The translations under genes were made by a program, and so were the position numbers. From Candidatus Hadarchaeota archaeon (GTDB lineage Archaea; Hadarchaeota; Hadarchaeia; Hadarchaeales; Hadarchaeaceae), in assembly GCA_964433595.1 (NCBI GenBank), contig CAYSRF010000002.1, forward strand, positions 1-37,865: a stretch of DNA of 37,865 nucleotides. Reading direction: 5' to 3'. How positions within the stretch are numbered: position 1 is the stretch's first letter; each line of letters opens with the position of its first letter. Under the pieces are notes generated by a model, which saw only the letters and a list, made by a program, of their open reading frames with translations, searched no databases and was not told the origin of the DNA. Positions 5,739 through 26,282 of the stretch are shown piece by piece.

Positions 5739-7445
5739 TTAAGGCTTGGTTGCTATTTCCTCTTGAGTTGGTCTGCTTTTCTCTGGTATCGTCTGGATAA
5801 TCGCCCCTCGGAATAATTTCATCTGTTTTGCATACTCCAAAATATCGAGCTTCCCTCTTGTTGTTAATTCTAGTCTTGGGAAGATTTCTACATCAAGATC
5901 TGTCTCATCTTTCACCTTATTTACAATATCCTTGTATAACCCCAGTCCTATGAAGAAGATTTTATCGTGTCTCCTCAATTTACCTTTCAATTCTTCTACA
6001 AACTTTGGGACATCACTTTCCTGCATCTTGTAATCATAAGTTGGTATTCGCTTGCTCCAATCGATAAACCCGAATTTGGCCGAGAGGATCCCTATTTCTA
6101 CAGGTAAGTCAAAGATATTGTTCCAAAATACCTTGAAGACAGGTGAAGGCAGATACCTTTGATAAGCAGACAATAGTCCCGATGATTCATTTTTCTTCCC
6201 CGTGCAGCTCGTGAAGACGAAAATTCGAGGTGAAATTTCTCTGAGTTTTCTATAAAAAATGAATGTATTGTGAAAACCTCTCCGCCTGTTTCTGTTGTTT
6301 CCTCTGAAAATGATCACCTCAACTCCCACATTTTTGCAAATGGTACATGAACATTTTTTCCATGGCATATCAGTCAAAGTTTCCCTGTAATATTTTTCCA
6401 ATTCAGGTCTTTCGCCAATGGTTCTGTCGTATTCTAAAATTGTTTTCATTACTTCGGCAATTGGAATCTTACCTTGGTCGTATAGCCTCATGGACTCCAT
6501 TGCCTTTCTTTCCAGTTTCGCTAATTCTTCTGGATTTGAAATACTCTTAACACGATGACTTCTTTCTGTTTGCGGTATCCTAATCGCACTGTAACCCCTT
6601 CCGTCGACCGCATAATAATTATTTTGAGCACTTAGCCAAGCTCTTCTTAGAAATGATGCCGAATCAAAACTTGTTACTCCATATTTCATGAAATCTGGGA
6701 TTATTTGAGGTCTAGCGGCCCCAAAGACATGGATATCTATTTTACGTTTAGTTTCATCCATCTGTTTCTTAACTTCTAACCAAACCCCTTTAATTACATT
6801 AATAAGAGTTTTGGTCTCCTCTTTCTTACCTTCCAATCCAGTGGGGGCCCGAGCTAAACCCCCCAGGCCGATATAATCATAACCCACTTTCAACAATTCT
6901 CTAACAGCTCTCCTGTAGGAGTCTACATCCCAACCTTGAGCAACGCCAATTATTCTTATTGATTGCAAATACTCGTCTTTTGAATGCCATAATTCAAACA
7001 TTTCTTGTGCATTTTCAAGAGTTATTTTCCATCGTTTTTCATATTGGTCTTTATGCATAGGAACTATTAAATGATCAATTGAAACTCCGTAATTAAAACC
7101 GCATTTGAGGTAATAATCCAGAGTTTCAGAGGGTTTGAAGGGAGGTTCATCTTTATCTATGTACCCCCAGGCTCCACAGTCCCCCATAATCTCGAATGTT
7201 TTTGGTAAACGTAAGAATTGATGAATGCCTTCTCTTAGAATTTGTTGGTATTTTGCTTTATTTTCCACGATCTTCATTCTTGAAACTAGGACACCATCGA
7301 TTGGAACATTTTCCAGTCCAAAAATATTCCATACATAAACATCATTTTGTAAAGGATTTTCGTAATGAGTTTCTGAATGGTTGTCGGTGATGAAATCATA
7401 TTCGGGGTCTACACGATCGTCCCATTCTGGAATGAAGTACTTCAT
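5739..7445 (-). CDS. dpdA: TGT-superfamily transglycosylase, DpdA-like (putative DNA 7-deazaguanine transglycosylase), with an extra C-terminal domain of about 165 aa
   Basis: N-terminus MKYFIPEWDDRVDPEYDF. TIM-barrel motifs GDCGAWGY, IGLGGLARA, HVFGAARP and FDSASFLRR. Zinc site CSCTICKN-x22-H. No PUA tail. The C-terminal part (FVFTSCTGKK...ILSAKFGFI...IPTYDYKM) is reminiscent of a DUF6884-type domain, with low certainty. Confidence 0.65.
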   Translation of the reverse strand: MKYFIPEWDDRVDPEYDFITDNHSETHYENPLQNDVYVWNIFGLENVPIDGVLVSRMKIVENKAKYQQILREGIHQFLRLPKTFEIMGDCGAWGYIDKDEPPFKPSETLDYYLKCGFNYGVSIDHLIVPMHKDQYEKRWKITLENAQEMFELWHSKDEYLQSIRIIGVAQGWDVDSYRRAVRELLKVGYDYIGLGGLARAPTGLEGKKEETKTLINVIKGVWLEVKKQMDETKRKIDIHVFGAARPQIIPDFMKYGVTSFDSASFLRRAWLSAQNNYYAVDGRGYSAIRIPQTERSHRVKSISNPEELAKLERKAMESMRLYDQGKIPIAEVMKTILEYDRTIGERPELEKYYRETLTDMPWKKCSCTICKNVGVEVIIFRGNNRNRRRGFHNTFIFYRKLREISPRIFVFTSCTGKKNESSGLLSAYQRYLPSPVFKVFWNNIFDLPVEIGILSAKFGFIDWSKRIPTYDYKMQESDVPKFVEELKGKLRRHDKIFFIGLGLYKDIVNKVKDETDLDVEIFPRLELTTRGKLDILEYAKQMKLFRGAIIQTIPEKSRPTQEEIATKP

Positions 7446-7489
7446 TGAACTACCCCGCTAGATCTTGTTTACAAATAGATTTTCGTTGT

Positions 7490-7639
7490 TTATATTGTTG
7501 CATTCCTCTTTTCTCTGAAGTATTCGGCTAAAATCGATCTGATGGTTTCTTGAAGCGTATCTAGTCTTCTTCTTTTCTGCTCCAACTCTAAAGCTCGGTG
7601 CATAGATCCCGGGATAGACATAGTAAATTTCCTTGCCAT
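7490..7639 (-). CDS. Ribbon-helix-helix (CopG/Arc/MetJ-type) small DNA-binding protein, 49 aa (not in the ORF track)
   Basis: My own translation gives MARKFTMSIPGSMHRALELEQKRRRLDTLQETIRSILAEYFREKRNATI. An AAGGAG sits upstream. The beta-strand plus two-helix pattern is present. It is about 80 percent identical to the ORF at 11777..11917. It replaces the 72-aa track ORF, which is in another frame. Confidence 0.65.
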   Translation of the reverse strand: MARKFTMSIPGSMHRALELEQKRRRLDTLQETIRSILAEYFREKRNATI

Positions 7640-7704
7640 ACATCATTCTCCTTCTTTGGAATTCTTTGGAAACCAAAAGATATATAAATATACCATTCTA
7701 TAGA

Positions 7705-7726
7705 CTTCTTTAGACTTCTAAAGAAG
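7705..7726. promoter_or_regulatory. Perfect 10-bp inverted repeat CTTCTTTAGA-ct-TCTAAAGAAG in the divergent promoter region; candidate RHH operator
   Basis: Read directly from the sequence. It lies between the A/T-rich TATA-like tatataaatata (7681-7691) and ATG 7742. The core TCTTTAGA/TCTAAAGA recurs at 11923-11982 and 10973-10986. Confidence 0.5.
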
Positions 7727-7741
7727 CAAAAGTGAGTAAAT

Positions 7742-8806
7742 ATGATAATGGAAGGTTCCTTTCCGGTGGTTTACCCTAGCACGAAGGACATCATACTCTC
7801 ACAGTTAAACCTACAAAAGATAATGACAAGTGTAGCTTTTATAAACTCTGAGCAGAAAAAGCAGAACGTTCATGAAATCATAAATTTCAACAAATTAATC
7901 TTTTTAGATTGCGGAATTTTTCAAAGAGGTTCTTATAAAAAATACGACACATGGGGCAAGATATGCAAATACCGTGAAAAGCTTATTGATTGGTACGCCC
8001 ATCTCAAACCAGACCTTGCAAGTTCTCTAGATTTGCCTAGTCTACACATTTTCAAAGATAAAATTAGAAAGGAGAGATTAACTTGGTCGATTGAGAATTA
8101 CAAACTAATGAAAACTCAACTTGATGTTCCTTTAGTTCTCGGGATCAGCGTTTTTTCTATAGAGGATATTTATCTAACTAAAAACTATATTCAAAAGATT
8201 CTTGGGGAAGAACCTGTTCTCATAGGACTAGGTGGACTGGTTCCTCTAATGAGATCCTGTAAAACTCATCCCGCGCTTGGGAAATTGATCCTGAAAATAG
8301 TATACCAAACGCGAAAGAATTTTCCTCACTCTTTCATTCATGTTTATGGTCTGGGAGACCATCAATGGTACCCACTCACTCGGTTAGTTGGGGCATCAAG
8401 CAGTGATTACGCAGGATATTACTACATTACTGGTAGGGGGGGAATACTCCTACCGAATTCCTCGGAAAAGTATGTTCTTAGAATGATTAAGCAAAAAACT
8501 AAAAAAGGTTTTGTTTACTATACTCGTTCTAATAACAAAATATTTTCAATAAAGGAACTAAGGCAACTCTATGGATGTCGATGCCCTTCGTGTAAAGATT
8601 CGGATCCTACTTTACTAGAATTCGATCGCAAGAAACGTCTAGTCCATAACTTGTATACGATATTGTCCGAAACTAGGATTGTTGATGAGTATTGTAACCA
8701 AAATGATATTGAAAGATTAAAAAAATATGTGAAAGATCGATTCACTCATGGAAAGAATGAGATGAAAGCTTACGTGAAATACGCTCTAGAACTTGTGGAA
8801 AAGTGA
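7742..8806 (+). CDS. Second, highly divergent TGT-superfamily (DpdA-like) protein
   Basis: Motifs FLDCGIFQ (compare TGT DSGGFQ), IGLGGLVPL, HVYGLGDHQ and SSSDYAGYY, plus zinc site CRCPSCKD-x17-H. It has no PUA domain and no C-terminal extension. Confidence 0.6.
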   Translation: MIMEGSFPVVYPSTKDIILSQLNLQKIMTSVAFINSEQKKQNVHEIINFNKLIFLDCGIFQRGSYKKYDTWGKICKYREKLIDWYAHLKPDLASSLDLPSLHIFKDKIRKERLTWSIENYKLMKTQLDVPLVLGISVFSIEDIYLTKNYIQKILGEEPVLIGLGGLVPLMRSCKTHPALGKLILKIVYQTRKNFPHSFIHVYGLGDHQWYPLTRLVGASSSDYAGYYYITGRGGILLPNSSEKYVLRMIKQKTKKGFVYYTRSNNKIFSIKELRQLYGCRCPSCKDSDPTLLEFDRKKRLVHNLYTILSETRIVDEYCNQNDIERLKKYVKDRFTHGKNEMKAYVKYALELVEK

Positions 8807-8886
8807 AAAAATATAATGTCATTGGATTTACTAAGAAAAATTTTAGAAAATTTGTACGTGACTAAATCATGTCGTCGAAAACCAGA

Positions 8887-10791
8887 CTAACCCGGCGCAC
8901 CCGTTGATTCGATCTTCCTAATGAAATCGTCTAAATCGCTTAGATTCAGAAAAACGTATATTCCAGTTTTAGCAAGGTGGAAAAGGTCTTCCTCGCGCCA
9001 ATGTCCATCTGGCACGAAAAGAATCATGTAATCATCTTTATATTTGGTTTGGATACGTCCATTACTAGAATACACATCAAAAAGGGTTCCAAACGCCCTT
9101 CCAGACTCCTCAGGGCTTCGATGTTGGACTGTGCTACCCAGTGCGAATCTGGACTTTAGTAAGATCGTCATTTGATTACCCTTGATGCACCAGGGGTAGT
9201 TAACAGTACCTTGGTTATGGAGCAGACGTTCACCATGGTTAGGGTAAGTTTGTAGTTGATCTCTCCGAAGTTTAATCAATTGCTCGAATAGTGTCTTAAT
9301 CACATAATTCCTTTCATGTCTATATCTAGATACTATAGAGTTAATAACGTAGTCAATTGGGCTAACTTTTGGATTATTCAACTCTTGCCAAACTCGTTCC
9401 CCAACACTTCTTTTTGACGTAACCAAGCGGGAGTAGATTGTACCGTTACGAACCAACCGATCCCTCTCTTTCAACAATAAATTAGTCAATCTTGTCATTT
9501 CTTGTCTCGAGAAATCTCGAACATAGAAGTTGACTTCCATCCGGTTGGTTCGGATCACGGAACGGATACTGCTTTCCTTCAACCCGAAAACGTCAAGAAC
9601 GATTTTCCGCCAAATTCGCCTCTTCTCGATATCGGGAGTATTCCAAAATCGTTGAAGAGTATCGTTAAAATTTTTTGAAAATAAATCTTTGAGGTGGGCA
9701 CTATACTTCTCCCATTGCCGGAGGACATTGAAGTTATCCAGCAATTCTCCTCTCCTTTCACTTAATATTGTCGCTGCTGAAGTCTCTATCTGCTCTTCCG
9801 AAACCCCTAATTTGGAGAAATCGATAAACAAAGAAGAAACAATCATTTTTCTCCCTATCCGAAATTTCGCGTCACGGCTTCTCTTGATGAGATTCAAAGA
9901 GGTGATAAAATCAACTGCGTTCTTCACTTCCTCAACAGGTAAAGAAAGCGCATTCACGATCTCATCTAATTTACGGGTTCCATGAGAAATTAGGTACTTC
10001 AAAACCTTCTTTTCAGTATTTTCCAGTATAGCATTAAGGATAATGGCATATCTGAGTGAGGGTCGCGAACTTGGAACACCATATGTTTTGATCTGTTTTT
10101 CTAACAACTTCTGAGGAGAGATCCATCTAGGTCGTCTCGTTTTGAGATAGGAGTCTCGGCAAGAAGACCAAAAATACTCCAGCTCTGATCTTTTGAGTCT
10201 TGTGAGATTTTTGAAGTACACAATCAAATTGTTATAAGCCCACCTAACATTCTTCAAATCAGGCCCTGGTCTTTCGAACCTGCTCTGAATATACTTGTAA
10301 AATGGCCCCTCAGGTCTTTCCTCTTTCCATTTATTATGAAGATATTTCAAATCTTCCTCTAAAATGAAAAAGTCATCTTTTTTTTGGTATTGTGGGTAAA
10401 AAACTGAATCAAAAAGAACCTCCTTTCCGGAAAGTAACCATTTTGCCCAGTATTTCTTATTCCCGAAAACAATGTTCACTGCGATGCATTTTGGTCCCAA
10501 GATGCGGGAGAGTTTGATTTCTTTAAGTTCATCAAAAGTCTCCCATGCGGGATACTGTGAATTACGAGTTGGCGAATCTATCTCCTCCCCTGTTGTGCAG
10601 AAAATCGCATAACGTACATTTTTGTGTGAAAGTAAGATATCAACATGACATCTCAGAGAGGAGGAACTGAACTGGCGAGCGATGAACTTCGGATCATAGA
10701 TACTACTCAAAGCAGCATAGGTTAGTTGCTCTAATCGCCAACCATGATCGGCTGCAAGACCACGTCCTGGATGCCAAGTTTCTGCCGACAT
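8887..10791 (-). CDS. Hypothetical 634-aa protein with a central winged-helix-like segment; no recognisable family
   Basis: Long ORF in the AT-rich block. GGGAG precedes the ATG and TTTAAATA lies about 40 nt upstream. LKYLISHGTRKLDEIVNALSLPVEEVKNAVDFITSLNLIKR looks like a wHTH. The terminal regions have possible nuclease-like acidic motifs (HVDILLS..., ...DYMILFVPDGHWREED), which are unproven. Confidence 0.55.
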   Translation of the reverse strand: MSAETWHPGRGLAADHGWRLEQLTYAALSSIYDPKFIARQFSSSSLRCHVDILLSHKNVRYAIFCTTGEEIDSPTRNSQYPAWETFDELKEIKLSRILGPKCIAVNIVFGNKKYWAKWLLSGKEVLFDSVFYPQYQKKDDFFILEEDLKYLHNKWKEERPEGPFYKYIQSRFERPGPDLKNVRWAYNNLIVYFKNLTRLKRSELEYFWSSCRDSYLKTRRPRWISPQKLLEKQIKTYGVPSSRPSLRYAIILNAILENTEKKVLKYLISHGTRKLDEIVNALSLPVEEVKNAVDFITSLNLIKRSRDAKFRIGRKMIVSSLFIDFSKLGVSEEQIETSAATILSERRGELLDNFNVLRQWEKYSAHLKDLFSKNFNDTLQRFWNTPDIEKRRIWRKIVLDVFGLKESSIRSVIRTNRMEVNFYVRDFSRQEMTRLTNLLLKERDRLVRNGTIYSRLVTSKRSVGERVWQELNNPKVSPIDYVINSIVSRYRHERNYVIKTLFEQLIKLRRDQLQTYPNHGERLLHNQGTVNYPWCIKGNQMTILLKSRFALGSTVQHRSPEESGRAFGTLFDVYSSNGRIQTKYKDDYMILFVPDGHWREEDLFHLAKTGIYVFLNLSDLDDFIRKIESTGAPG

Positions 10792-10980
10792 TTTTCTCCC
10801 TATTGAATTTGTTTACATTTTTGGATTAAAAACTATTTAAATCATTTTACGTTAATTTTGCCGCGAAAATAAGCTGACCCATGGAGAATGGTGCTATAGG
10901 TCCCCGAAGGGCCTAAGAAAGCTGTTAGAGAAACACCCAAAGTTACTAACACGAAAAATTTAGGGGACATGACTTTAGAT

Positions 10981-11775
10981 TTAGAATTTAAGATTCCGTT
11001 GAATAAACGACTCAACTTGACGGTTCTTGGTTTGAAAATTTTTCTTTTCTGTATCAAAATCATCTATTATGCACACCTTTTCCCTCGCAAACTCCGATTC
11101 TATTACATGGGCAAAAGGCAAATTCAAATTAGATAGAATTAATATCGCGGTTGGTCTAAAAATTTTGAGATAATTTTTTATTTGCTCTTTTAACCTCCTT
11201 TCAGGCTTCCCAAGTGTTGGGTCAACGATCATTCTTGGGTTGATCACCTTTCCCTTGCCTAGCGGTTCTGGGCCGAAATCATTCACTATTGGGATATATG
11301 CTTGGATTTTTTCGAAGTCATCTACAAGTTCAAGTCTCCAATACATATTCACTGTTTCTCTAAAGGGCGAAAGACGTTTAATCTTCACATAGATTTGTCC
11401 TAAAACAATAGAGATGTCTGGCCTAAGACGGCTTCGCAGAGGTGGATAACCATCGTAGTAAATAGATAAGGTCAGATCTGTTCTATGTCTTAGAACTATT
11501 GATGGGGACAACCAATTTGCTAACTGAAGGATCGGGATTCTCGATATGCGGATGCCACGCGTCATTGAGAATTTTGGGGCGATGACGTGATTTGAGTCAA
11601 TGTATTTTGGTAGTGGTTTGAAATCAAGTTTTGTTAGATCTTGGAAGATACAATTAAAGACAAACTCTTCATATTTTCTAAACTTAGATCTTCTTTCTCT
11701 TGAGCTAAATGAAATCCCATAACTCGACAGAGGATAACCGTTCGAAGAACCACCATCTTTCATTGATTGATACAT
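10981..11775 (-). CDS. Hypothetical protein of about 264 aa, no recognisable family
   Basis: I prefer ATG 11775, which is 1 nt after the stop of the RHH gene, over the track GTG at 11835, which lies inside the RHH gene. RPDISIV and MIVDPTLGKPERRLKEQIK are weak PD-(D/E)xK-like hints only. Confidence 0.5.
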   Translation of the reverse strand: MYQSMKDGGSSNGYPLSSYGISFSSRERRSKFRKYEEFVFNCIFQDLTKLDFKPLPKYIDSNHVIAPKFSMTRGIRISRIPILQLANWLSPSIVLRHRTDLTLSIYYDGYPPLRSRLRPDISIVLGQIYVKIKRLSPFRETVNMYWRLELVDDFEKIQAYIPIVNDFGPEPLGKGKVINPRMIVDPTLGKPERRLKEQIKNYLKIFRPTAILILSNLNLPFAHVIESEFAREKVCIIDDFDTEKKNFQTKNRQVESFIQRNLKF

Positions 11776-11776
11776 T

Positions 11777-11917
11777 CTACCCCATTTTTTCTCTGAAATA
11801 TTCAGCAAGAAGTGATCGAATGGTCTGTTGGACACTATCGAGTCGTCTTCTCTTTTTTTCTTCTTCTAAAGCCCTAAGCATAGATTCTGGAAGGGACATA
11901 GTGAATTTTCTTGCCAT
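11777..11917 (-). CDS. Ribbon-helix-helix small DNA-binding protein, 46 aa, paralog of 7490..7639 (not in the ORF track)
   Basis: My own translation gives MARKFTMSLPESMLRALEEEKKRRRLDSVQQTIRSLLAEYFREKMG. Its stop TAG (11779-11777) is followed after 1 nt by the ATG of the next gene. Confidence 0.65.
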   Translation of the reverse strand: MARKFTMSLPESMLRALEEEKKRRRLDSVQQTIRSLLAEYFREKMG

Positions 11918-11922
11918 AGCTA

Positions 11923-11982
11923 TCTAAAGAAATCTAAAGAGGGGAGAACTTAAAGAAGGGTTGTTCTTTAGAATGCTAAAGA
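11923..11982. promoter_or_regulatory. Cluster of TCTAAAGA/TCTTTAGA sites upstream of the second RHH gene; candidate operator array
   Basis: Tandem tctaaaga at 11923-11930 and 11933-11940. Inverted repeat TCTTTAG-aatg-CTAAAGA at 11965-11982. A related cttaaagaag at 11949-11958. Confidence 0.5.
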
Positions 11983-11997
11983 CTTAATTTGACGTCC

Positions 11998-12008
11998 AAA
12001 AAAAAAAA
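11998..12008 (-). terminator. T11 tract (minus strand) just downstream of queD; archaeal oligo-T terminator candidate
   Basis: An A11 run on the plus strand sits 46 nt past the queD stop and separates the que operon from the next promoter region. Confidence 0.45.
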
Positions 12009-12053
12009 CGTCTTTAAGGATAAAAAATAATAACTAGCTTACTATTTTTTTGA

Positions 12054-14219: not shown

Positions 14220-14900
14220 TTAGACCTCGTACTTGATTGGATCCTTAACCCCAACTTCCCTGAATCCCCTTTTCCTATGCTGACAACTTTCACAGACTCC
14301 GCAATGTTTTTCTTTACCAAAATAGCAACTCCAGGTCAATTCAAATGGAGCATTGACTTCTATTCCCTTCTTAATGATGCCCACTTTGTTCAAGTTAATT
14401 AAAGGGGCCTCGATCTTTGGTTTAGGTTCTGTGAAGGAAGCTGTTCCCCGCTCTAAAATAAGGTTAAATGCTTCCACGAAGGGAGGTCTATTATCCGGAT
14501 ACCCCAATCCCTCCTCTGCGTTAAATCCAACGAATATTTTTTCAGCTCTCAGACTTTCAGCATAAGCTCCCGCTAAAGACAACAAGACGGTGTTTCTCAT
14601 AGGAACCCATGTTGGAGGGGTTTCCTTTGCCCTTAACGAAACTTCTTTTTTAACCGGAATCTCTAAGCTTTCATCGGTCAAACTTGAATGCCCCAATTCT
14701 TTCAAAAATGTTAAATCGACGAACTTCCTTTCTTTGGCCCCTAATCTCTCGGCTATTTTCTTAACAGCTTCTATTTCCCTTTTCTCAGCTTTATGTCCAT
14801 AATTAGCGTGAAGAATGTAGATTTCGTATCCCTGCTTTTTCGCGATCGTTGTTGCGACGGTTGAATCAAGTCCTCCTGAAAGAACGCAAACAATTTTCAT
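14220..14900 (-). CDS. queC: 7-cyano-7-deazaguanine (preQ0) synthase
   Basis: PP-loop VLSGGLDST and C-terminal zinc site [14 protein letters not shown]. Confidence 0.85.
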
Positions 14901-15223
14901 TTCAACCTTCCCCCTAGAAGATCTTCGTATACTTCCCTCATGTAGAAGACGCTGGCCGCAGTTTCCTCATCTAATCCACATCTACAGGCCCTGCACTTCG
15001 GGCAGATCAACCATCCACATTTTGGACAGACATCAGTTTTGGTGACATCGAATTTCTCCCCACATTTGAAACAATAGACCTCGGGTTTTGTGAAAAATTT
15101 CAAAAAGTTCTCAATTGCTCTTGAGAGAGGTATGCGCCTTTCATCTGATGTTTTCTTTGCTTCTTCAACCACATCCTCGTCTACTGTAATAGTCAACTTC
15201 GTTTTCTTATTCGACGTAGTCAT
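14897..15223 (-). CDS. Ribbon-helix-helix domain fused to a double CxxC zinc ribbon; first gene of the que operon (putative regulator)
   Basis: KLTITVDEDVVEEAKKTSDERRIPLSRAIENFLKFF is an RHH. It is followed by CFKCGEKF...CPKCGWLICPKCRACRC. ATGA overlap with queC. Confidence 0.6.
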   Translation of the reverse strand: MTTSNKKTKLTITVDEDVVEEAKKTSDERRIPLSRAIENFLKFFTKPEVYCFKCGEKFDVTKTDVCPKCGWLICPKCRACRCGLDEETAASVFYMREVYEDLLGGRLK

Positions 15224-15230
15224 ATGTGTT

Positions 15231-15250
15231 AATACGTATTAATTCGTATT
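15231..15250. promoter_or_regulatory. Tandem decamers AATACGTATT / AATTCGTATT between a TTAAATA box and the start codon of the RHH-Zn gene; candidate operator
   Basis: The first decamer is a perfect palindrome and the second differs by 1 nt. They sit 8-27 nt upstream of ATG 15223, and a TATA-like ttaaata follows on the minus strand (leaderless-type geometry). Confidence 0.4.
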
Positions 15251-15510: not shown

Positions 15511-15608
15511 TTTTGGACACCATTCTAAGACTCTTGTTAACTTTTATTGCCATCTCACCTAAGATCTAAATAAAGATAAAAGAGATTCTCTTGCAAGAGT
15601 TTGGTAAT

Positions 15609-16535
15609 ATGGGATCCGAGGAAGAAGTTCAAACTCGAAAAACGCAAATTGAAACACACAAAGAGAATCTTCGTAGAGCGATCGAAAAAGCAGAGGCAGC
15701 TAAAGAAGCTCTAAGAGAGGGGATAGCTAACAGGAAAAGGGTATGTGGGGATTTAGATGGGATAAAAGAATTGTCCTCTCAAGAACTTTCTGCGTTAGAA
15801 ATCATCGAACCTTTGGTTGCAAAAATTGATGACGATACCTGGCAAAGTTACGAAGGAATAGCATGTAGTGGTGCAGATTTATCTGGAACATTAAGTGCTT
15901 TCCATCGAGATATTCAAACTGAAGAAGCTGAATTCAGTGAAATTGCTACCGTATCTGGAGCTTCCATTACAACCGCTACTACTAGTGCAGTAAGTGTGGT
16001 CGATCTTTTTTCAGATTTCGATCTCCGTGTTAAAGAAATAAAGATACAAGATACTATCGTGAAGAATATAGAATTTATCCAGAACCGATTAAGCGAAATA
16101 GATCCGTCAATTGCTCAAGGAATCAGAATTCTTTTCCAAGATTGGAGTAGTTTGCCAAATTTTGAGAAATCAAAAAGGTTACTTGATTTAAGATCGTTGT
16201 TATTCTATCAATTTTTTGATCGATTTGCTCCAGAACACAGTTATTCAAAATGTCAATGGTACCGAGATGCAAAAGAAGGAACAATCTGTAGAAAAATGCG
16301 TTTTGCCCAGGTTAAGTTCTTTATTCAGGATTGCAGGGACGATTCAGAAATTAAGGAGTCGGTTCTCAAATCAATTGATTCTACGGCTAAGGATATGTCC
16401 CGCAATTTTGATGATATGTCGAATTATGGCAAACATGGAACATCAGGATCTGTGGCGGAGAGCGTATTTAGAGGCACAATCTCTTCTTTTGCAAACGTTC
16501 TGAGATTAAGAGACCAACTACGGGAGGTTTCCTAA
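15609..16535 (+). CDS. Hypothetical protein with an N-terminal coiled-coil-like region
   Basis: I prefer ATG 15609. An A/T-rich box taaataaagataaaag lies 25-40 nt upstream, and the palindrome CTCTTGCAAGAG (15588-15599) lies between them. No family recognised. Confidence 0.45.
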   Translation: MGSEEEVQTRKTQIETHKENLRRAIEKAEAAKEALREGIANRKRVCGDLDGIKELSSQELSALEIIEPLVAKIDDDTWQSYEGIACSGADLSGTLSAFHRDIQTEEAEFSEIATVSGASITTATTSAVSVVDLFSDFDLRVKEIKIQDTIVKNIEFIQNRLSEIDPSIAQGIRILFQDWSSLPNFEKSKRLLDLRSLLFYQFFDRFAPEHSYSKCQWYRDAKEGTICRKMRFAQVKFFIQDCRDDSEIKESVLKSIDSTAKDMSRNFDDMSNYGKHGTSGSVAESVFRGTISSFANVLRLRDQLREVS

Positions 16536-17574: not shown

Positions 17575-17679
17575 CCTACCTTCTTTTGTAAGTAATAAAT
17601 CAATATCCGTTTCTCAGGCTCTCGAGACCATGTCTTTCCCGCACATTCTTTTATCAAAGTCCACTGGTATTTGCCATCT

Positions 17680-23633: not shown

Positions 23634-26282
23634 TTAGACTTGTCTAGAGTTATTGTATTTTTCTAGAAACGAATTTGCAACTTCTTTCGGGGAAGTTTTC
23701 CTTGCGTCGAGGTAACCAATTGATGACTGCAACCCCGGCACCTCTGAATCATCGAATATGACTGGCAAAATATAGTCGCCAAATTGTTTTATTTGTCTGG
23801 CTATAGCACTTTTCCTCTCATGCGAGGGCCAAGCTTTAGAAACATAATCTTTAGAAATAAACATGATACAGTAATCGGAGTGATCGTAGTAAACTTTTTG
23901 GAGATATTCTGCGAGGTCAGTACCCCATAACTGCGATTGGTAAAATTGATCATACCAGCACTTTATGCCCTTAGTTTGGAGAATATGGGCAACTTCATCA
24001 ACATATTCTCTTTGCTCACTGGCATAAGACAAAGCCACATCGTATTTATTATCTTTCGTCACTTTTTTTTTATTTTGATTTATCGGGATTGCGACGAAGG
24101 GTCCGTAGAATTTGTCAATAATGCTTTCAAATTCATTTTTAAGGCGGTCGCAAATTCTCCTATCCCTGCCTCCAATATAATAGACACATTTAACGTGCAT
24201 TCCTTTAATAGCATCACCAAATATTTGAAAATTGTAGTAGATACAAGCGTTTTCTTCCCAAGAAAAAAGACCGTCTTTCTGTGATAAGTCAATACAACCT
24301 AGATTTAACTCTGAAATAGCCCTTATCAAACGGCCTATTTCTATTTCTTTATAGGGAAAAATCTTTTCCTCAAAATCTTTAAGAAATTTTTTATATTCTT
24401 TTGGAACATCTATTCCTTCTTCGCGAAGTTTTTCAGGAAATATTCTCAAATCACGATTTTTTATGGCAATGTCGTAATTTAGGTAGACTGCATCCAAGAT
24501 TGGAATATAAGGATGACGTTTATATTCTTTCAATAATTCATTGTACGGGACAATACCTTTCTTCCCCCCTACAAAAATTGGGATATTTGTCAACAACCTA
24601 TTGTATTCAACATCGTTTATGATAACTAAATTACTGGCCTCTGGGTAGTACCCAATTATGCCCTGATTACTAAAATCCCGCAACAAGAACTTAAGGTGCT
24701 TAGCTGGCATGTCATACCCTAGGAAACTGTGATGGTATTTTTCAAGTTCTTCAAATTTAATCGCTTTTCGATCTTCTTCTTGAAGTTTGTTTATTAGTTT
24801 AACTAGATTATCAGAAAATGAAGACTTGATCACAATTTTGGTGTTTTCCCAATAAATTTTTTCTAATAATTGATCTTTTAATTCGTCTATTCCAGTTCCA
24901 TCTGAAGGGCAAACTTTTAACCGAATATCAATTTTCCCACTATCAAGAAGGGCTTTTACTGTAGGTTCATCAATTTCATTAATTTCCTGATCTATGTAAG
25001 TTTGAACAAAGAGTATCTTTATTTTTGGATTTAGATTTTTTTCGAGACCTTTCAAGGTTTCTATGGCTTTATCAAAAGAATGTTTATCATTTTGTTGGAA
25101 CAAAATAAGTATAACATCAGAGTCGGCTAAAAATGGTAAGAAGGTGCCTAACACTGTTTCTTGCCCACCATAATCATGGAAGATAATTCGCTTTTGCAAA
25201 GGACCTCCATCGATAATCCAATTCCAAATTCTTTTACCAAATGTTGATTTAACGGCTCCCGCTGACCCTGTTGTGATAAAATTACATAAAGTACTTTTGC
25301 CTACACCTGTATGTCCGATTAAACTGATTTTAGCGTACTTATATTTTATAAGTTTAGGATCGGGTTTAACTTTTTCTCTTTCAAATGATAGTAATCCATC
25401 TTTTTTTAAAACAAGAATTGTATTTTCTTTTGAGAATATTTTTATAATCCCCCCAATCTCATTAGATTCTATTTGTTGAGAATCTACATCAAACTGAATC
25501 AATTCAGTATCTGTGCCGGCAAAAACAGTTTTACCATCATTCGTTATATGTATACAATTTCCCCTGCTCTTAGCATTAGCTATTTCCAACACTGTTTGCC
25601 ATTTCTTAGCACCATTTTCAATTTTCTTTTCGAATAAGTGAATGTGACCAGCCATATCAATTGATGCAAATGAAGCATCTTGAGTCCATGATATATCTTC
25701 TACTGTTTGATTAATGTTTAGCTGTTGTAATTCTTCGTAATGATCTTTTTGATATTCCCAAATAAGAATTTTTCCCGTATAATCTCCTGAAGCCATGAGT
25801 TGCACATTTAGACCTCCCAAAGCGAAAATACTGTTCCGATGTCCCGAAATTGAATATTTTTCCCATTGTCCATGTTCACTTTTACGTATTCCCGTCATGA
25901 CGCCGTATGTTGATGTCGCGACCAAATTTTTTTCCATTGGCCAAACTGTTCTCCAAACACGGGAACTAACGCTATAAGTTGCTTCTTGAAGAAATTCGGG
26001 ATTCTTTGGATTTTCACAATTTAAAATGAAAAGATCACCATTATGGCTACCTACAAGAATTCTTCCATTGCCGCAGGAGGAAATTGTCTCGATTTTTGAT
26101 GAGCATCTGTACAATATTTTTGGTTCGTCATTTTTTGTTTCCCACTTGACAACCAAACCGTTTTCATGTCCAGTAATAAGTAAGTCCATATCAGCTAGAA
26201 AGACACCAGTAGTAGCATTTGGAAAATCTTTTGGGAAAGAAATAATTTGGTTATATTTATTGGGCATTTTTTCTCCATGCAT
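23634..26282 (-). CDS. WD40-like beta-propeller / Roc-type small GTPase / helical (COR-like) region / C-terminal TIR domain protein
   Basis: WD-like repeats (GHENGLVVKW, GSHNGDLFIL, SGDYTGKILIWE). GTPase G1 GHTGVGKST and G3 HDYGGQE. TIR: YDVALSYASEQREYVDEVAHILQTKGIKCWYD...YCIMFISKDYVSKAWPSHERKSA, with a conserved Glu. Confidence 0.65.
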   Translation of the reverse strand: MHGEKMPNKYNQIISFPKDFPNATTGVFLADMDLLITGHENGLVVKWETKNDEPKILYRCSSKIETISSCGNGRILVGSHNGDLFILNCENPKNPEFLQEATYSVSSRVWRTVWPMEKNLVATSTYGVMTGIRKSEHGQWEKYSISGHRNSIFALGGLNVQLMASGDYTGKILIWEYQKDHYEELQQLNINQTVEDISWTQDASFASIDMAGHIHLFEKKIENGAKKWQTVLEIANAKSRGNCIHITNDGKTVFAGTDTELIQFDVDSQQIESNEIGGIIKIFSKENTILVLKKDGLLSFEREKVKPDPKLIKYKYAKISLIGHTGVGKSTLCNFITTGSAGAVKSTFGKRIWNWIIDGGPLQKRIIFHDYGGQETVLGTFLPFLADSDVILILFQQNDKHSFDKAIETLKGLEKNLNPKIKILFVQTYIDQEINEIDEPTVKALLDSGKIDIRLKVCPSDGTGIDELKDQLLEKIYWENTKIVIKSSFSDNLVKLINKLQEEDRKAIKFEELEKYHHSFLGYDMPAKHLKFLLRDFSNQGIIGYYPEASNLVIINDVEYNRLLTNIPIFVGGKKGIVPYNELLKEYKRHPYIPILDAVYLNYDIAIKNRDLRIFPEKLREEGIDVPKEYKKFLKDFEEKIFPYKEIEIGRLIRAISELNLGCIDLSQKDGLFSWEENACIYYNFQIFGDAIKGMHVKCVYYIGGRDRRICDRLKNEFESIIDKFYGPFVAIPINQNKKKVTKDNKYDVALSYASEQREYVDEVAHILQTKGIKCWYDQFYQSQLWGTDLAEYLQKVYYDHSDYCIMFISKDYVSKAWPSHERKSAIARQIKQFGDYILPVIFDDSEVPGLQSSIGYLDARKTSPKEVANSFLEKYNNSRQV

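Follow-up and report, generated by a model that had tools for sequence, protein, structure and literature searches.

Can two micro-genes, each encoding fewer than 50 amino acids (aa), jointly control the separate modules of an archaeal DNA-modification island? The question is raised by a 37,865-nucleotide (nt) stretch from Candidatus Hadarchaeota archaeon (contig CAYSRF010000002.1, positions 1 to 37,865, assembly GCA_964433595.1), which was analyzed at its full length and is referred to below as the window. On its minus strand, RHH1 (7490..7639), encoding a 49-aa ribbon-helix-helix (RHH) protein, is the first gene of a unit with dpdA (5739..7445, minus strand), the gene of a 568-aa DNA 7-deazaguanine transglycosylase. 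RHH2 (11777..11917, minus strand), encoding a 46-aa paralogue of RHH1, is the first gene of a second unit, in which the gene of a 264-aa protein (10981..11775, minus strand) is followed by that of a 634-aa protein (8887..10791, minus strand). A first-pass annotation, made from the letters of the DNA, had described the two as unannotated, duplicated, dedicated repressors, suggesting co-regulation of a modification and an effector module. Here we report that both are genes under purifying selection and that arrays of the same palindromic box are found at both promoters, and we argue that auto- and cross-repression by the two proteins is the probable basis of a shared control. Related loci that were compared with the window are labeled L001, L002 and so on.

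Reading frames of the two micro-genes

Translation of window positions 7490-7639 and 11777-11917 on the minus strand gave exactly the two peptides quoted in the first-pass annotation, and its count of matching positions also stood: 35 columns are invariant in the first 44 residues, with 76% identity overall and reciprocal tblastn E-values of about 4e-20. The ATG of RHH1 has a GGAG motif 8 nt on its 5′ side (7648-7651), and the 568-aa gene, with a GGGG motif at 7453-7456, starts 44 nt after RHH1. Between the TAG stop codon of RHH2 and the ATG of the 264-aa gene lies a single nucleotide, which makes translational coupling of the two genes probable; the 634-aa gene then follows, in the order previously stated. 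As no Shine-Dalgarno sequence is visible before RHH2, its mRNA is probably leaderless.

Competing frames that a mechanical ORF (open reading frame) track reports in place of the two genes do exist, namely 7458..7676 (minus strand, 72 aa, TTG start) and 10981..11835 (minus strand, 284 aa, GTG start). Among seven copies from syntenic islands, the ratio of non-synonymous to synonymous substitutions (pN/pS) was 0.12-0.35 in the RHH frame, compared with roughly 0.6-2.3 in the two shifted frames; RHH1 gave 0.12-0.21 against the six other island copies and RHH2 gave 0.13-0.30. In the same seven copies, substitutions at codon positions 1, 2 and 3 numbered 179, 139 and 462, and synonymous sites were near saturation (pS 0.4-1.1). 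Stop codons in homologues break the alternative frames, including 7458..7676 and the GTG-extended 10981..11835, so that in the homologous islands it is the RHH frames that are conserved. Because selection is seen only in the RHH frame and homologues carry stops in the competing frames, both micro-ORFs are real genes under purifying selection.

The opposite explanation, that the two are chance open frames and that the real genes are the overlapping 7458..7676 and the 284-aa GTG extension, could draw on their size, which is under the usual length cut-offs, and on one public call set that lays the 284-aa ORF over RHH2. However, another call set uses the correct 264-aa start, at least 56 family members have been called independently, and the alternative frames are interrupted in homologues. 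With strong purifying selection confined to the RHH frame, this explanation is effectively refuted.

The claim that the genes were unannotated holds for one of them. RHH2 was never called in public gene sets, and neither its exact sequence nor that of its L002 counterpart is present among about 15 billion predicted proteins; the exact RHH1 sequence, by contrast, is already on record as a called gene (NCBI, Logan). Uncalled RHH2-type genes also lie at L002 4479-4610 and at L089 1041-1172, the L089 copy apparently with a TTG start.

Fold and distribution of the family

The RHH identity that had been read from the residue pattern was borne out by a profile match, by predicted topology and by a profile relation to MetJ. 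RHH2 matched Pfam RHH_1 (PF01402) with 22.0 bits, above the gathering threshold (GA) of 20.5, and at E<0.01 RHH_1 was matched by 13 and MetJ by 5 of 57 family members. An AlphaFold2 (AF2) monomer model built on the family alignment, with a mean predicted local distance difference test score (pLDDT) of 88.8, is extended over residues 1-10 and has helices at 11-24 and 29-48, between which D/G-T turn residues are conserved. The best Foldseek matches in the PDB were mostly RHH proteins (MatP, NikR, CopG, CopA_SO and AmrZ), with query-based template modeling scores (TMq) of 0.55-0.74, and the antitoxins MazE, VapB and ParD were also among the matches. RHH1 and RHH2 thus have a ribbon-helix-helix fold, and as the proteins end 3-8 residues past helix B, they are bare RHH domains. 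A single family member, in L018 (1852 onward), carries a C-terminal extension of about 70 residues, giving 113 aa in total, unlike the other bare domains of 44-49 aa.

By sequence, the nearest solved structure is that of MetJ (profile search E 0.012). Alignment of the family with MetJ by hhalign gave an E-value of 8.9e-5 over 42 columns that span the beta-strand, helix A and helix B, the family protein ending near MetJ residue 63; CopG was much more distant (probability 3.7%). In this alignment the near-invariant family residues K4, T6 and S8 coincide with K23, T25 and S27 of MetJ, within the beta-strand motifs KKFTMSLP of the family and KKITVSIP of MetJ. MetJ K23 and T25 reportedly contact bases, reading the G and the A of each AGA half-site, as Somers and Phillips are said to have described in 1992. 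RHH1 and RHH2 differ from each other in the beta-strand only at residue 9 (I9 or L9). The thresholds of the MetJ families themselves were missed (Pfam PF01340, 17.0 bits versus 25; NCBIfam NF003622, 17.2 bits versus 110), and the differences from MetJ of gammaproteobacteria (PF01340; PDB 1cma, 1mj2) are these: MetJ has 104 aa, with a helix C and a site for the co-repressor S-adenosylmethionine (SAM), whereas the family, at 44-49 aa, has neither, resides in archaea, is preceded by promoters with a TATA box and a B recognition element (BRE), and shows no link to methionine genes.

The ending of these proteins also bears on the antitoxin-type control that had been offered as one analogy, under which RHH1 and RHH2 would neutralize a toxic protein encoded downstream and repress the operon as a toxin-antitoxin complex. 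Many type II antitoxins do carry RHH at the N-terminus and are encoded first in an autoregulated bicistronic operon, and the 1-nt gap between RHH2 and the next gene, as well as MazE, VapB and ParD among the fold matches, would suit such a role. Yet there is no C-terminal toxin-binding extension, the gene downstream of RHH1 encodes DpdA, the 264-aa protein matches no toxin family, and 34 copies of the family stand alone without a co-directional partner gene. We consider this role extremely improbable.

A profile of the RHH pair found 56 small proteins of 39-63 aa in public metagenomes, and 65 distinct family copies were collected in 87 loci; sampling started from the RHH side, except for six loci with the 264-aa gene. 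Eight of nine genome matches were metagenome-assembled genomes (MAGs) of Bathyarchaeia/Bathyarchaeota and the ninth was a Hydrothermarchaeota MAG, the family being almost confined to Bathyarchaeia. Neither family members nor relatives of this DpdA occurred in IMG/VR, and no sign was found there of viral descent or of a viral mimic of the repressor.

Of the distinct copies, 17 immediately precede a dpdA orthologue on the same strand, and three immediately precede the 264-aa/634-aa pair or, in L002, its equivalent. A further 34 have no deazaguanine genes nearby, and 11 are at a contig end. The island copies, with the N-terminus MA[RK]KFTMS, cluster together in a low-resolution tree; the non-island copies (M[AVT]KFTMS) are stand-alone genes, and those examined pair with a divergent ORF of 40-47 aa. 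Calling the repressors dedicated is therefore apt as far as the island-specific clade goes, but 34 of the 65 copies reside outside a dpdA context and have the same operator. The tiny head-to-head ORF beside the non-island copies, for example MKKAVIIVKLVPESRDVSDSQIVKEIIAEAKIPWAAKIEKVTVSRNV, matched no family; such pairs were seen in L007 (7651-7794, minus strand), L008, L009, L003 (about 9890-9975, minus strand) and L010 (3555-3677, minus strand).

The paired layout of the window, in which preQ0 genes are followed by RHH, the 264-aa and 634-aa genes and then a gene related to tRNA-guanine transglycosylase (TGT) that is divergent from RHH-dpdA, recurs in L001 and L002. Identity is 70-77% for the RHH proteins there but has dropped to 30-57% for the neighboring proteins; the downstream dpdA-like gene of L001 lies on the other strand, and L002 has a 172-aa gene where the 264-aa gene would be. 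The divergent pairing of the TGT-like gene with RHH-dpdA is kept in L001, L002, L005, L020 and L026. All six known homologues of the 264-aa gene were sampled from that gene's side and so form an unbiased sample, in which an RHH gene is immediately 5′ of the homologue in four (the window, L001, L090 and, uncalled and with a TTG start, L089). The other two, L020 (2290-2380) and L091 (about 520-590), lack the RHH2-type gene but still have its boxes and AAAGAACAACC, the promoter signature, as if the gene had been lost and the cis-element kept. In L034 (6727-7905 and 10686-11984, both minus strand), the gene divergent from RHH-dpdA encodes a BrxC/D-like AAA ATPase and is followed by a strong TGT match, and a Csm6-type HEPN protein is encoded just downstream of dpdA.

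Operator arrays and the proposed control

In both window promoters a palindromic box, TCTWWAGA / AGANNTCT, is arrayed at a phase of exactly 10 bp on either side of the TATA box, which gives the proposed co-regulation of the modules direct sequence support. TCTWWAGA was matched 12 times in the whole window, compared with 4.55 expected, and six of these boxes are in the two promoters, at 7697, 7707 and 7717 and at 11923, 11933 and 11965. An isolated box at 17677, a single copy overlapping a stop codon, was taken as chance.

The RHH1 promoter occupies a 102-bp intergenic region from which the gene of a 354-aa archaeal TGT (arcTGT)-like protein (7742..8806, plus strand) diverges. Operator O1 of this bidirectional promoter (7696..7726) consists of the boxes TCTATAGA, TCTTTAGA and TCTAAAGA at 7697, 7707 and 7717, exactly 10 bp apart, has one mismatch to the 24-bp family composite described below, and lies with the TATA box on one side and the ATG of the 354-aa gene on the other. 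The quasi-palindromic region TATATAAATATA (7680..7692), at distances of about 41 nt to the ATG of RHH1 and about 50 nt to that of the TGT-like gene, would be a shared or bidirectional TATA box. Operator O2 (7651..7672) is made of direct repeats (7652-7661 and 7662-7671), seen as one-mismatch units TTCTTTGGAA at 7652 and 7662.

In the RHH2 promoter, O1 (11963..11983) reads GTCTTTAGCATTCTAAAGAAC on the minus strand and is followed by the signature AAAGAACAACCC, which is also found 5′ of other 264-aa homologues, L001 differing at two bases; an RHH2-type O1 variant followed by AACAACCC is common to the promoters upstream of the 264-aa gene. A TATA-like element of the TTTAAGT type, CTTTAAGT (11948..11955, minus strand), ends 30 nt before the ATG, has a TTTAAGTA/TTTAAATA element at the equivalent position in L001, L089 and L090, and presumably acts as the TATA box. 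O2 (11920..11942) holds two TCTTTAGA boxes (11923-11930 and 11933-11940) that are spaced by 10 bp, the pair ending 5 nt short of the ATG. Downstream of queD, a run of 11 T residues (11998..12008, minus strand) is probably an archaeal oligo-T terminator separating the preQ0 operon from the RHH2 unit. The surrounding segment between queD and the RHH2 operator (11985-12012) reads AAAGACG-T11-GGACGTCAAA, with metbox-like half-sites, AGACGT and GACGTC, on the two sides of the T-run; the segment may serve as an extra weak site or as nothing more than a terminator.

Across the family, boxes were counted in 49 non-redundant 130-nt regions upstream of family genes, with 740 kb of related loci as the background. 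The 8-mers TCTATAGA (53-fold enriched, 10 of 49 regions), AGACGTCT (51-fold, 5 of 49), AGACTTCT (45-fold, 24 of 49) and TCTTTAGA (39-fold, 28 of 49) stood out, AGACGTCT being the exact metbox consensus of E. coli. Altogether 133 boxes were found in the upstream regions, compared with 16.6 +/- 3.9 in shuffles; successive boxes were spaced at exactly 10 bp in 46 of 87 cases, and the 24-bp composite ACTTCTWWAGANNTCTWWAGAAGT, with at most 4 mismatches, occurred in 36 of the 49 regions compared with 0.01 expected. Arrays of at least three boxes numbered 34 in the 740 kb and were directly upstream of a family gene in 33 cases, which marks the boxes as specific to these genes, as opposed to a general promoter feature. 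The operator signal emerges only with the 8-bp core plus phasing, as the 12-mer CTTCTWWAGAAG with 2 mismatches was not enriched over the window (10 matches versus 8.9 expected). A scan for bacterial sigma-70 promoters and terminators showed no enrichment either, although this bacterial model is uninformative for an archaeal host.

The architecture of the island promoters is nearly fixed, and the RHH1 promoter of the window fits it: O1, a 24-bp palindrome, is followed after 5-8 bp by the TATA box (TTWATAAATA), after about 8 bp by O2 (TCTATAGAATTCCAAAGAGG) and after about another 8 bp by the ATG, with 33-39 nt from TATA to ATG. The 24-bp palindrome of O1 is often perfect, and O2 is degenerate. 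In non-island copies, the 24-bp element lies directly downstream of the TATA box, at -37 to -40.

The near-exclusive placement of the arrays matters for another explanation, that the RHH proteins are DNA-targeting accessory subunits which recruit DpdA or the TGT-like enzyme to genomic sequences, as DpdB does for bacterial DpdA. A tight, conserved adjacency with dpdA in 17 loci and the lack of a DpdB or DpdC homologue among the island proteins scanned would be in keeping with it. Against it stand the 33 of 34 arrays at the RHH genes' own promoters, the occurrence of over half of the family members without any dpdA, and the size of a 46-aa RHH protein, which leaves no spare surface for a partner. 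An accessory-subunit function is, in our judgment, very unlikely.

We instead regard the co-regulation of the modules through auto- and cross-repression by RHH1 and RHH2 as the probable reading; that the proteins bind these boxes, that they repress, and that the paralogues act on each other's promoters is what we infer from the sequences. RHH dimers would insert their N-terminal beta-ribbon (KFTMS) into the major groove and there recognize the AGA/TCT triplets within TCTWWAGA, a box overlapping the metbox-like AGANNTCT. Repeated palindromic boxes at the genes' own promoters agree with the obligate dimers of the RHH superfamily, whose paired beta-strands bind repeated DNA sites. Bound to one face of the DNA, the dimers would take up the 10-bp-phased boxes on either side of TATA, and cooperative occupancy of O1, which abuts the BRE position, would exclude the TATA-binding protein (TBP) and transcription factor B (TFB), while occupancy of O2, which covers the expected start site, would exclude RNA polymerase. 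Each RHH protein would thereby repress its own operon, and at the bidirectional RHH1 promoter O2 would guard one direction and O1 the other. Cross-repression is to be expected because the beta-strands of RHH1 and RHH2 are near-identical and their boxes are the same; each paralogue would act on the promoter of the other, perhaps also as heterodimers. A single negative-feedback signal would then reach RHH1-dpdA, the TGT-like gene and RHH2 with the 264-aa gene and possibly the 634-aa gene, holding the DNA-modifying enzymes and the 264-aa module at a fixed, low and mutually proportional level. In L020 and L091 the RHH2-type gene is gone and its boxes persist, an outcome that this model predicts and that agrees with trans control by the copy linked to dpdA.

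MetJ offers an analogy for such a mechanism. Its operators, like those of the family, consist of several adjacent short palindromic boxes; MetJ boxes are in tandem at 8 bp, whereas the family boxes are at 10 bp with a variable center dinucleotide, and a TCTWWAGA reading fits them equally. MetJ dimers each bind one 8-bp AGAC|GTCT box, and at least two adjacent boxes are needed for repression (PMC3228920).

Several observations weigh against the repression model or limit its reach. RHH1 alone remained below the reporting level for RHH_1 and reached no Pfam threshold, and the Foldseek E-values were non-significant, as expected for a 49-residue query. The RHH2 O1 of the window fits the 24-bp composite less well, with 5 mismatches by eye, and the sequence could accommodate either a dimer centered on TCT-WW-AGA, with two dimers per 24-bp operator, or one centered on AGA-NN-TCT in a MetJ-like register. 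O1 lies upstream of TATA, where archaeal regulators can also activate, so that repression as the sole action is assumed. Because non-island paralogues, 34 in number, are served by this same operator, control may extend beyond the island and there may be cross-talk with a chromosomal copy. Finally, the 634-aa gene of the window may escape the RHH2 promoter, or fall only partly under it, because the 189-nt gap after the 264-aa gene (10792-10980) contains a T-run just past the stop codon and a TATA-like TTTAAATA box about 47 nt before the 634-aa ATG. The corresponding gap is 13 nt in L001, and 13-36 nt in L001 and L020.

The kind of element is a familiar one, a small RHH autorepressor heading operons in a mobile island. 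CopG (pMV158), Arc and Mnt (P22) and omega (pSM19035) are bare RHH proteins of about 45-70 aa, each the first gene of an operon that it represses, and they bind arrays of short repeats in their own promoters; omega uses one shared repeat to coordinate several promoters of a single mobile element. CopG is among the fold matches of the family, and RHH_1 is the copG family. These plasmid and phage autorepressors differ in repeat unit, phasing and promoter type, and their cargo is replication or partition and not a 7-deazaguanine island. The small archaeal RHH factors aCcr1 (Sulfolobales), CdrS (haloarchaea), SvtR and F55 (both viral) have another motif, other targets (cell division or viral genes) and other lineages; the aCcr1-box, a 9-bp A(T/G)G(A)TA(G)A(T/G)TACN, is unlike the family box, and in the literature searched none of the four was linked to DpdA.

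The island and its regulators

The 568-aa protein downstream of RHH1, described at first as DpdA-like, is a genuine DpdA: it matched the NCBIfam DpdA equivalog NF041059 with 393.1 bits (cut-off 200) and the PADLOC DpdA model with E 9.4e-109, and it fuses a TGT domain to a C-terminal DUF6884. The bacterial Dpd system comprises dpdA-K (PMC10164549). The DpdA orthologue of the island likewise adjoins preQ0 synthesis genes (queC, queD, queE and folE2); differences lie in the DpdA-DUF6884 fusion, in the second TGT-like paralogue, in the archaeal host and in the other island proteins scanned, which match no Dpd model. Thus the 354-, 634-, 264-, 314-, 431-, 169-, 195-, 284- and 245-aa island proteins gave no PADLOC Dpd match, and the 284-aa ParB-domain protein (879-1733) did not match the DpdB model. 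RHH-headed operons for Dpd were not described in the literature searched, which held no archaeal cellular Dpd-type island, nothing on Dpd in Bathyarchaeota and no link between DpdA and an RHH regulator.

For the 264-aa and 634-aa proteins, the designation as an effector module was not supported by any family, PDB sequence or fold match. The 264-aa family is very rare, with six sequences among 5.8 billion clusters; the protein had no Pfam, NCBIfam, PADLOC or PDB sequence match, and its AF2 model (pLDDT 71.5) found nothing in Foldseek at E<=0.001. Scattered Foldseek matches to Ecl18kI, EcoT38I and MspJI, with TM-scores of about 0.2, were too weak to use. In the 634-aa protein, the sole family match is a central winged-helix domain (HTH_9, Sta1/Lrs14), and HSP90, its only PDB match, was dismissed at E 0.79.

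A third RHH gene (14897..15223, minus strand), missed by the first-pass annotation, encodes a 108-aa protein in which a DUF6364 RHH domain is joined to a Cys-rich zinc ribbon. It is unrelated to RHH1 and RHH2, kinship having been rejected at an hhalign E-value of 0.4. The gene overlaps the start of queC and heads the queC-queE-folE2-queD (preQ0) operon, and between the TATA-like TTAAATA and its ATG lies a repeat of its own, AATACGAATTAATACGTATTAA (15229..15250). Repeats of the TAATACGTAT type occur right after the TATA box in most of nine other loci (L012, L017, L022, L024, L025, L034-L036 and L049). The island is accordingly composed of three RHH-headed units with two operator codes.

The window is archaeal chromosome, with genes for GGGP synthase, POR, ferritin and a P-type ATPase, and with housekeeping genes on its right flank. 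A low-GC stretch of about 36-45% extends from about 6 to 26 kb, next to flanks of 50-57% (4-6 kb has about 50% GC), and because of its low GC (36-42%) relative to the flanks the island was probably acquired horizontally. No tRNA or integrase was seen at the island border in the window. The gene cluster as a whole spans about 2-26 kb (window about 2000-26400), with the ParB-domain gene (879-1733) just upstream of it, and also includes Nmad2, a glycosylase-like protein, an AAA_14/DUF4143 ATPase (PADLOC PDC-S01), a protein resembling pPIWI-associated nucleases (15591-16535) and an 882-aa WD40-Roc-TIR protein (23634-26282). Bathyarchaeial cellular islands of this type (window 5739-8806; L001, L002, L005, L020, L034 and others) combine DpdA-DUF6884 with one to three more TGT-like paralogues and add genes for preQ0 synthesis or transport (Vut_1/DUF5591 in L005).

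A probable horizontal origin is one of the points that could favor the other analogy made at the outset, with the C proteins of type II restriction-modification (R-M) systems. C proteins are helix-turn-helix (HTH) proteins that precede and time the nuclease gene. By this analogy, the RHH proteins would be biphasic controllers: at low dose they would fill O1 near BRE/TATA and activate or permit transcription, at high dose they would also fill O2 and shut it off, and in a newly entered cell this would time or balance DNA modification (DpdA and the TGT-like enzyme) against a putative restriction or effector module (the 264-aa and 634-aa proteins). The likeness holds for position and operator layout, with a small regulator as the first gene of the operon it would control, two operators of unequal quality flanking the core promoter, and a mobile DNA-modification island. 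Against it, C proteins have an Xre-type HTH, whereas the proteins here have no HTH family match and a predicted RHH fold, and RHH1 precedes the modification enzyme and not a nuclease; moreover, a nuclease or restriction function is not assignable to the 264-aa or the 634-aa protein, and activation from O1 is pure conjecture. We rate a C-protein-like role as unlikely, well behind repression by RHH1 and RHH2.

A bolder version, to which we likewise give only a small chance, makes the RHH pair the control hub of an undescribed archaeal 7-deazaguanine modification and defense island. One MetJ-like reading head would serve 10-bp-phased, metbox-like boxes at a bidirectional and a second promoter, and a switch in the style of C proteins, with a strong O1 near BRE/TATA and a weak O2 over the start site, would set the order or ratio of DNA modification against a putative effector on establishment in a new cell. 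A resident chromosomal paralogue could then pre-repress or mis-time an incoming island, a form of regulatory cross-immunity. If this were true, no controller of a Dpd-type system would have been described before this pair, nor would any such switch in Archaea.

To a specialist, the repression model may appear neat rather than surprising. What the analysis usefully adds is the MetJ-like reading head, the 10-bp-phased operator, the conserved O1-TATA-O2 design and the link to an undescribed archaeal DpdA island. The case also illustrates how gene callers miss a conserved regulator, RHH2 even being replaced by a false N-terminal extension of its neighbor. For one group of uncultured archaea, with almost no known transcription-factor sites, TCTWWAGA/AGANNTCT with 10-bp phasing in an O1-TATA-O2 arrangement provides a precise candidate regulatory code, and the operators and RHH genes give a handle on the archaeal cellular DpdA island. 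The family suggests, finally, that a MetJ-like DNA-reading head exists in Archaea as a free-standing module of 45 residues, which bears on how the specificity of MetJ arose.

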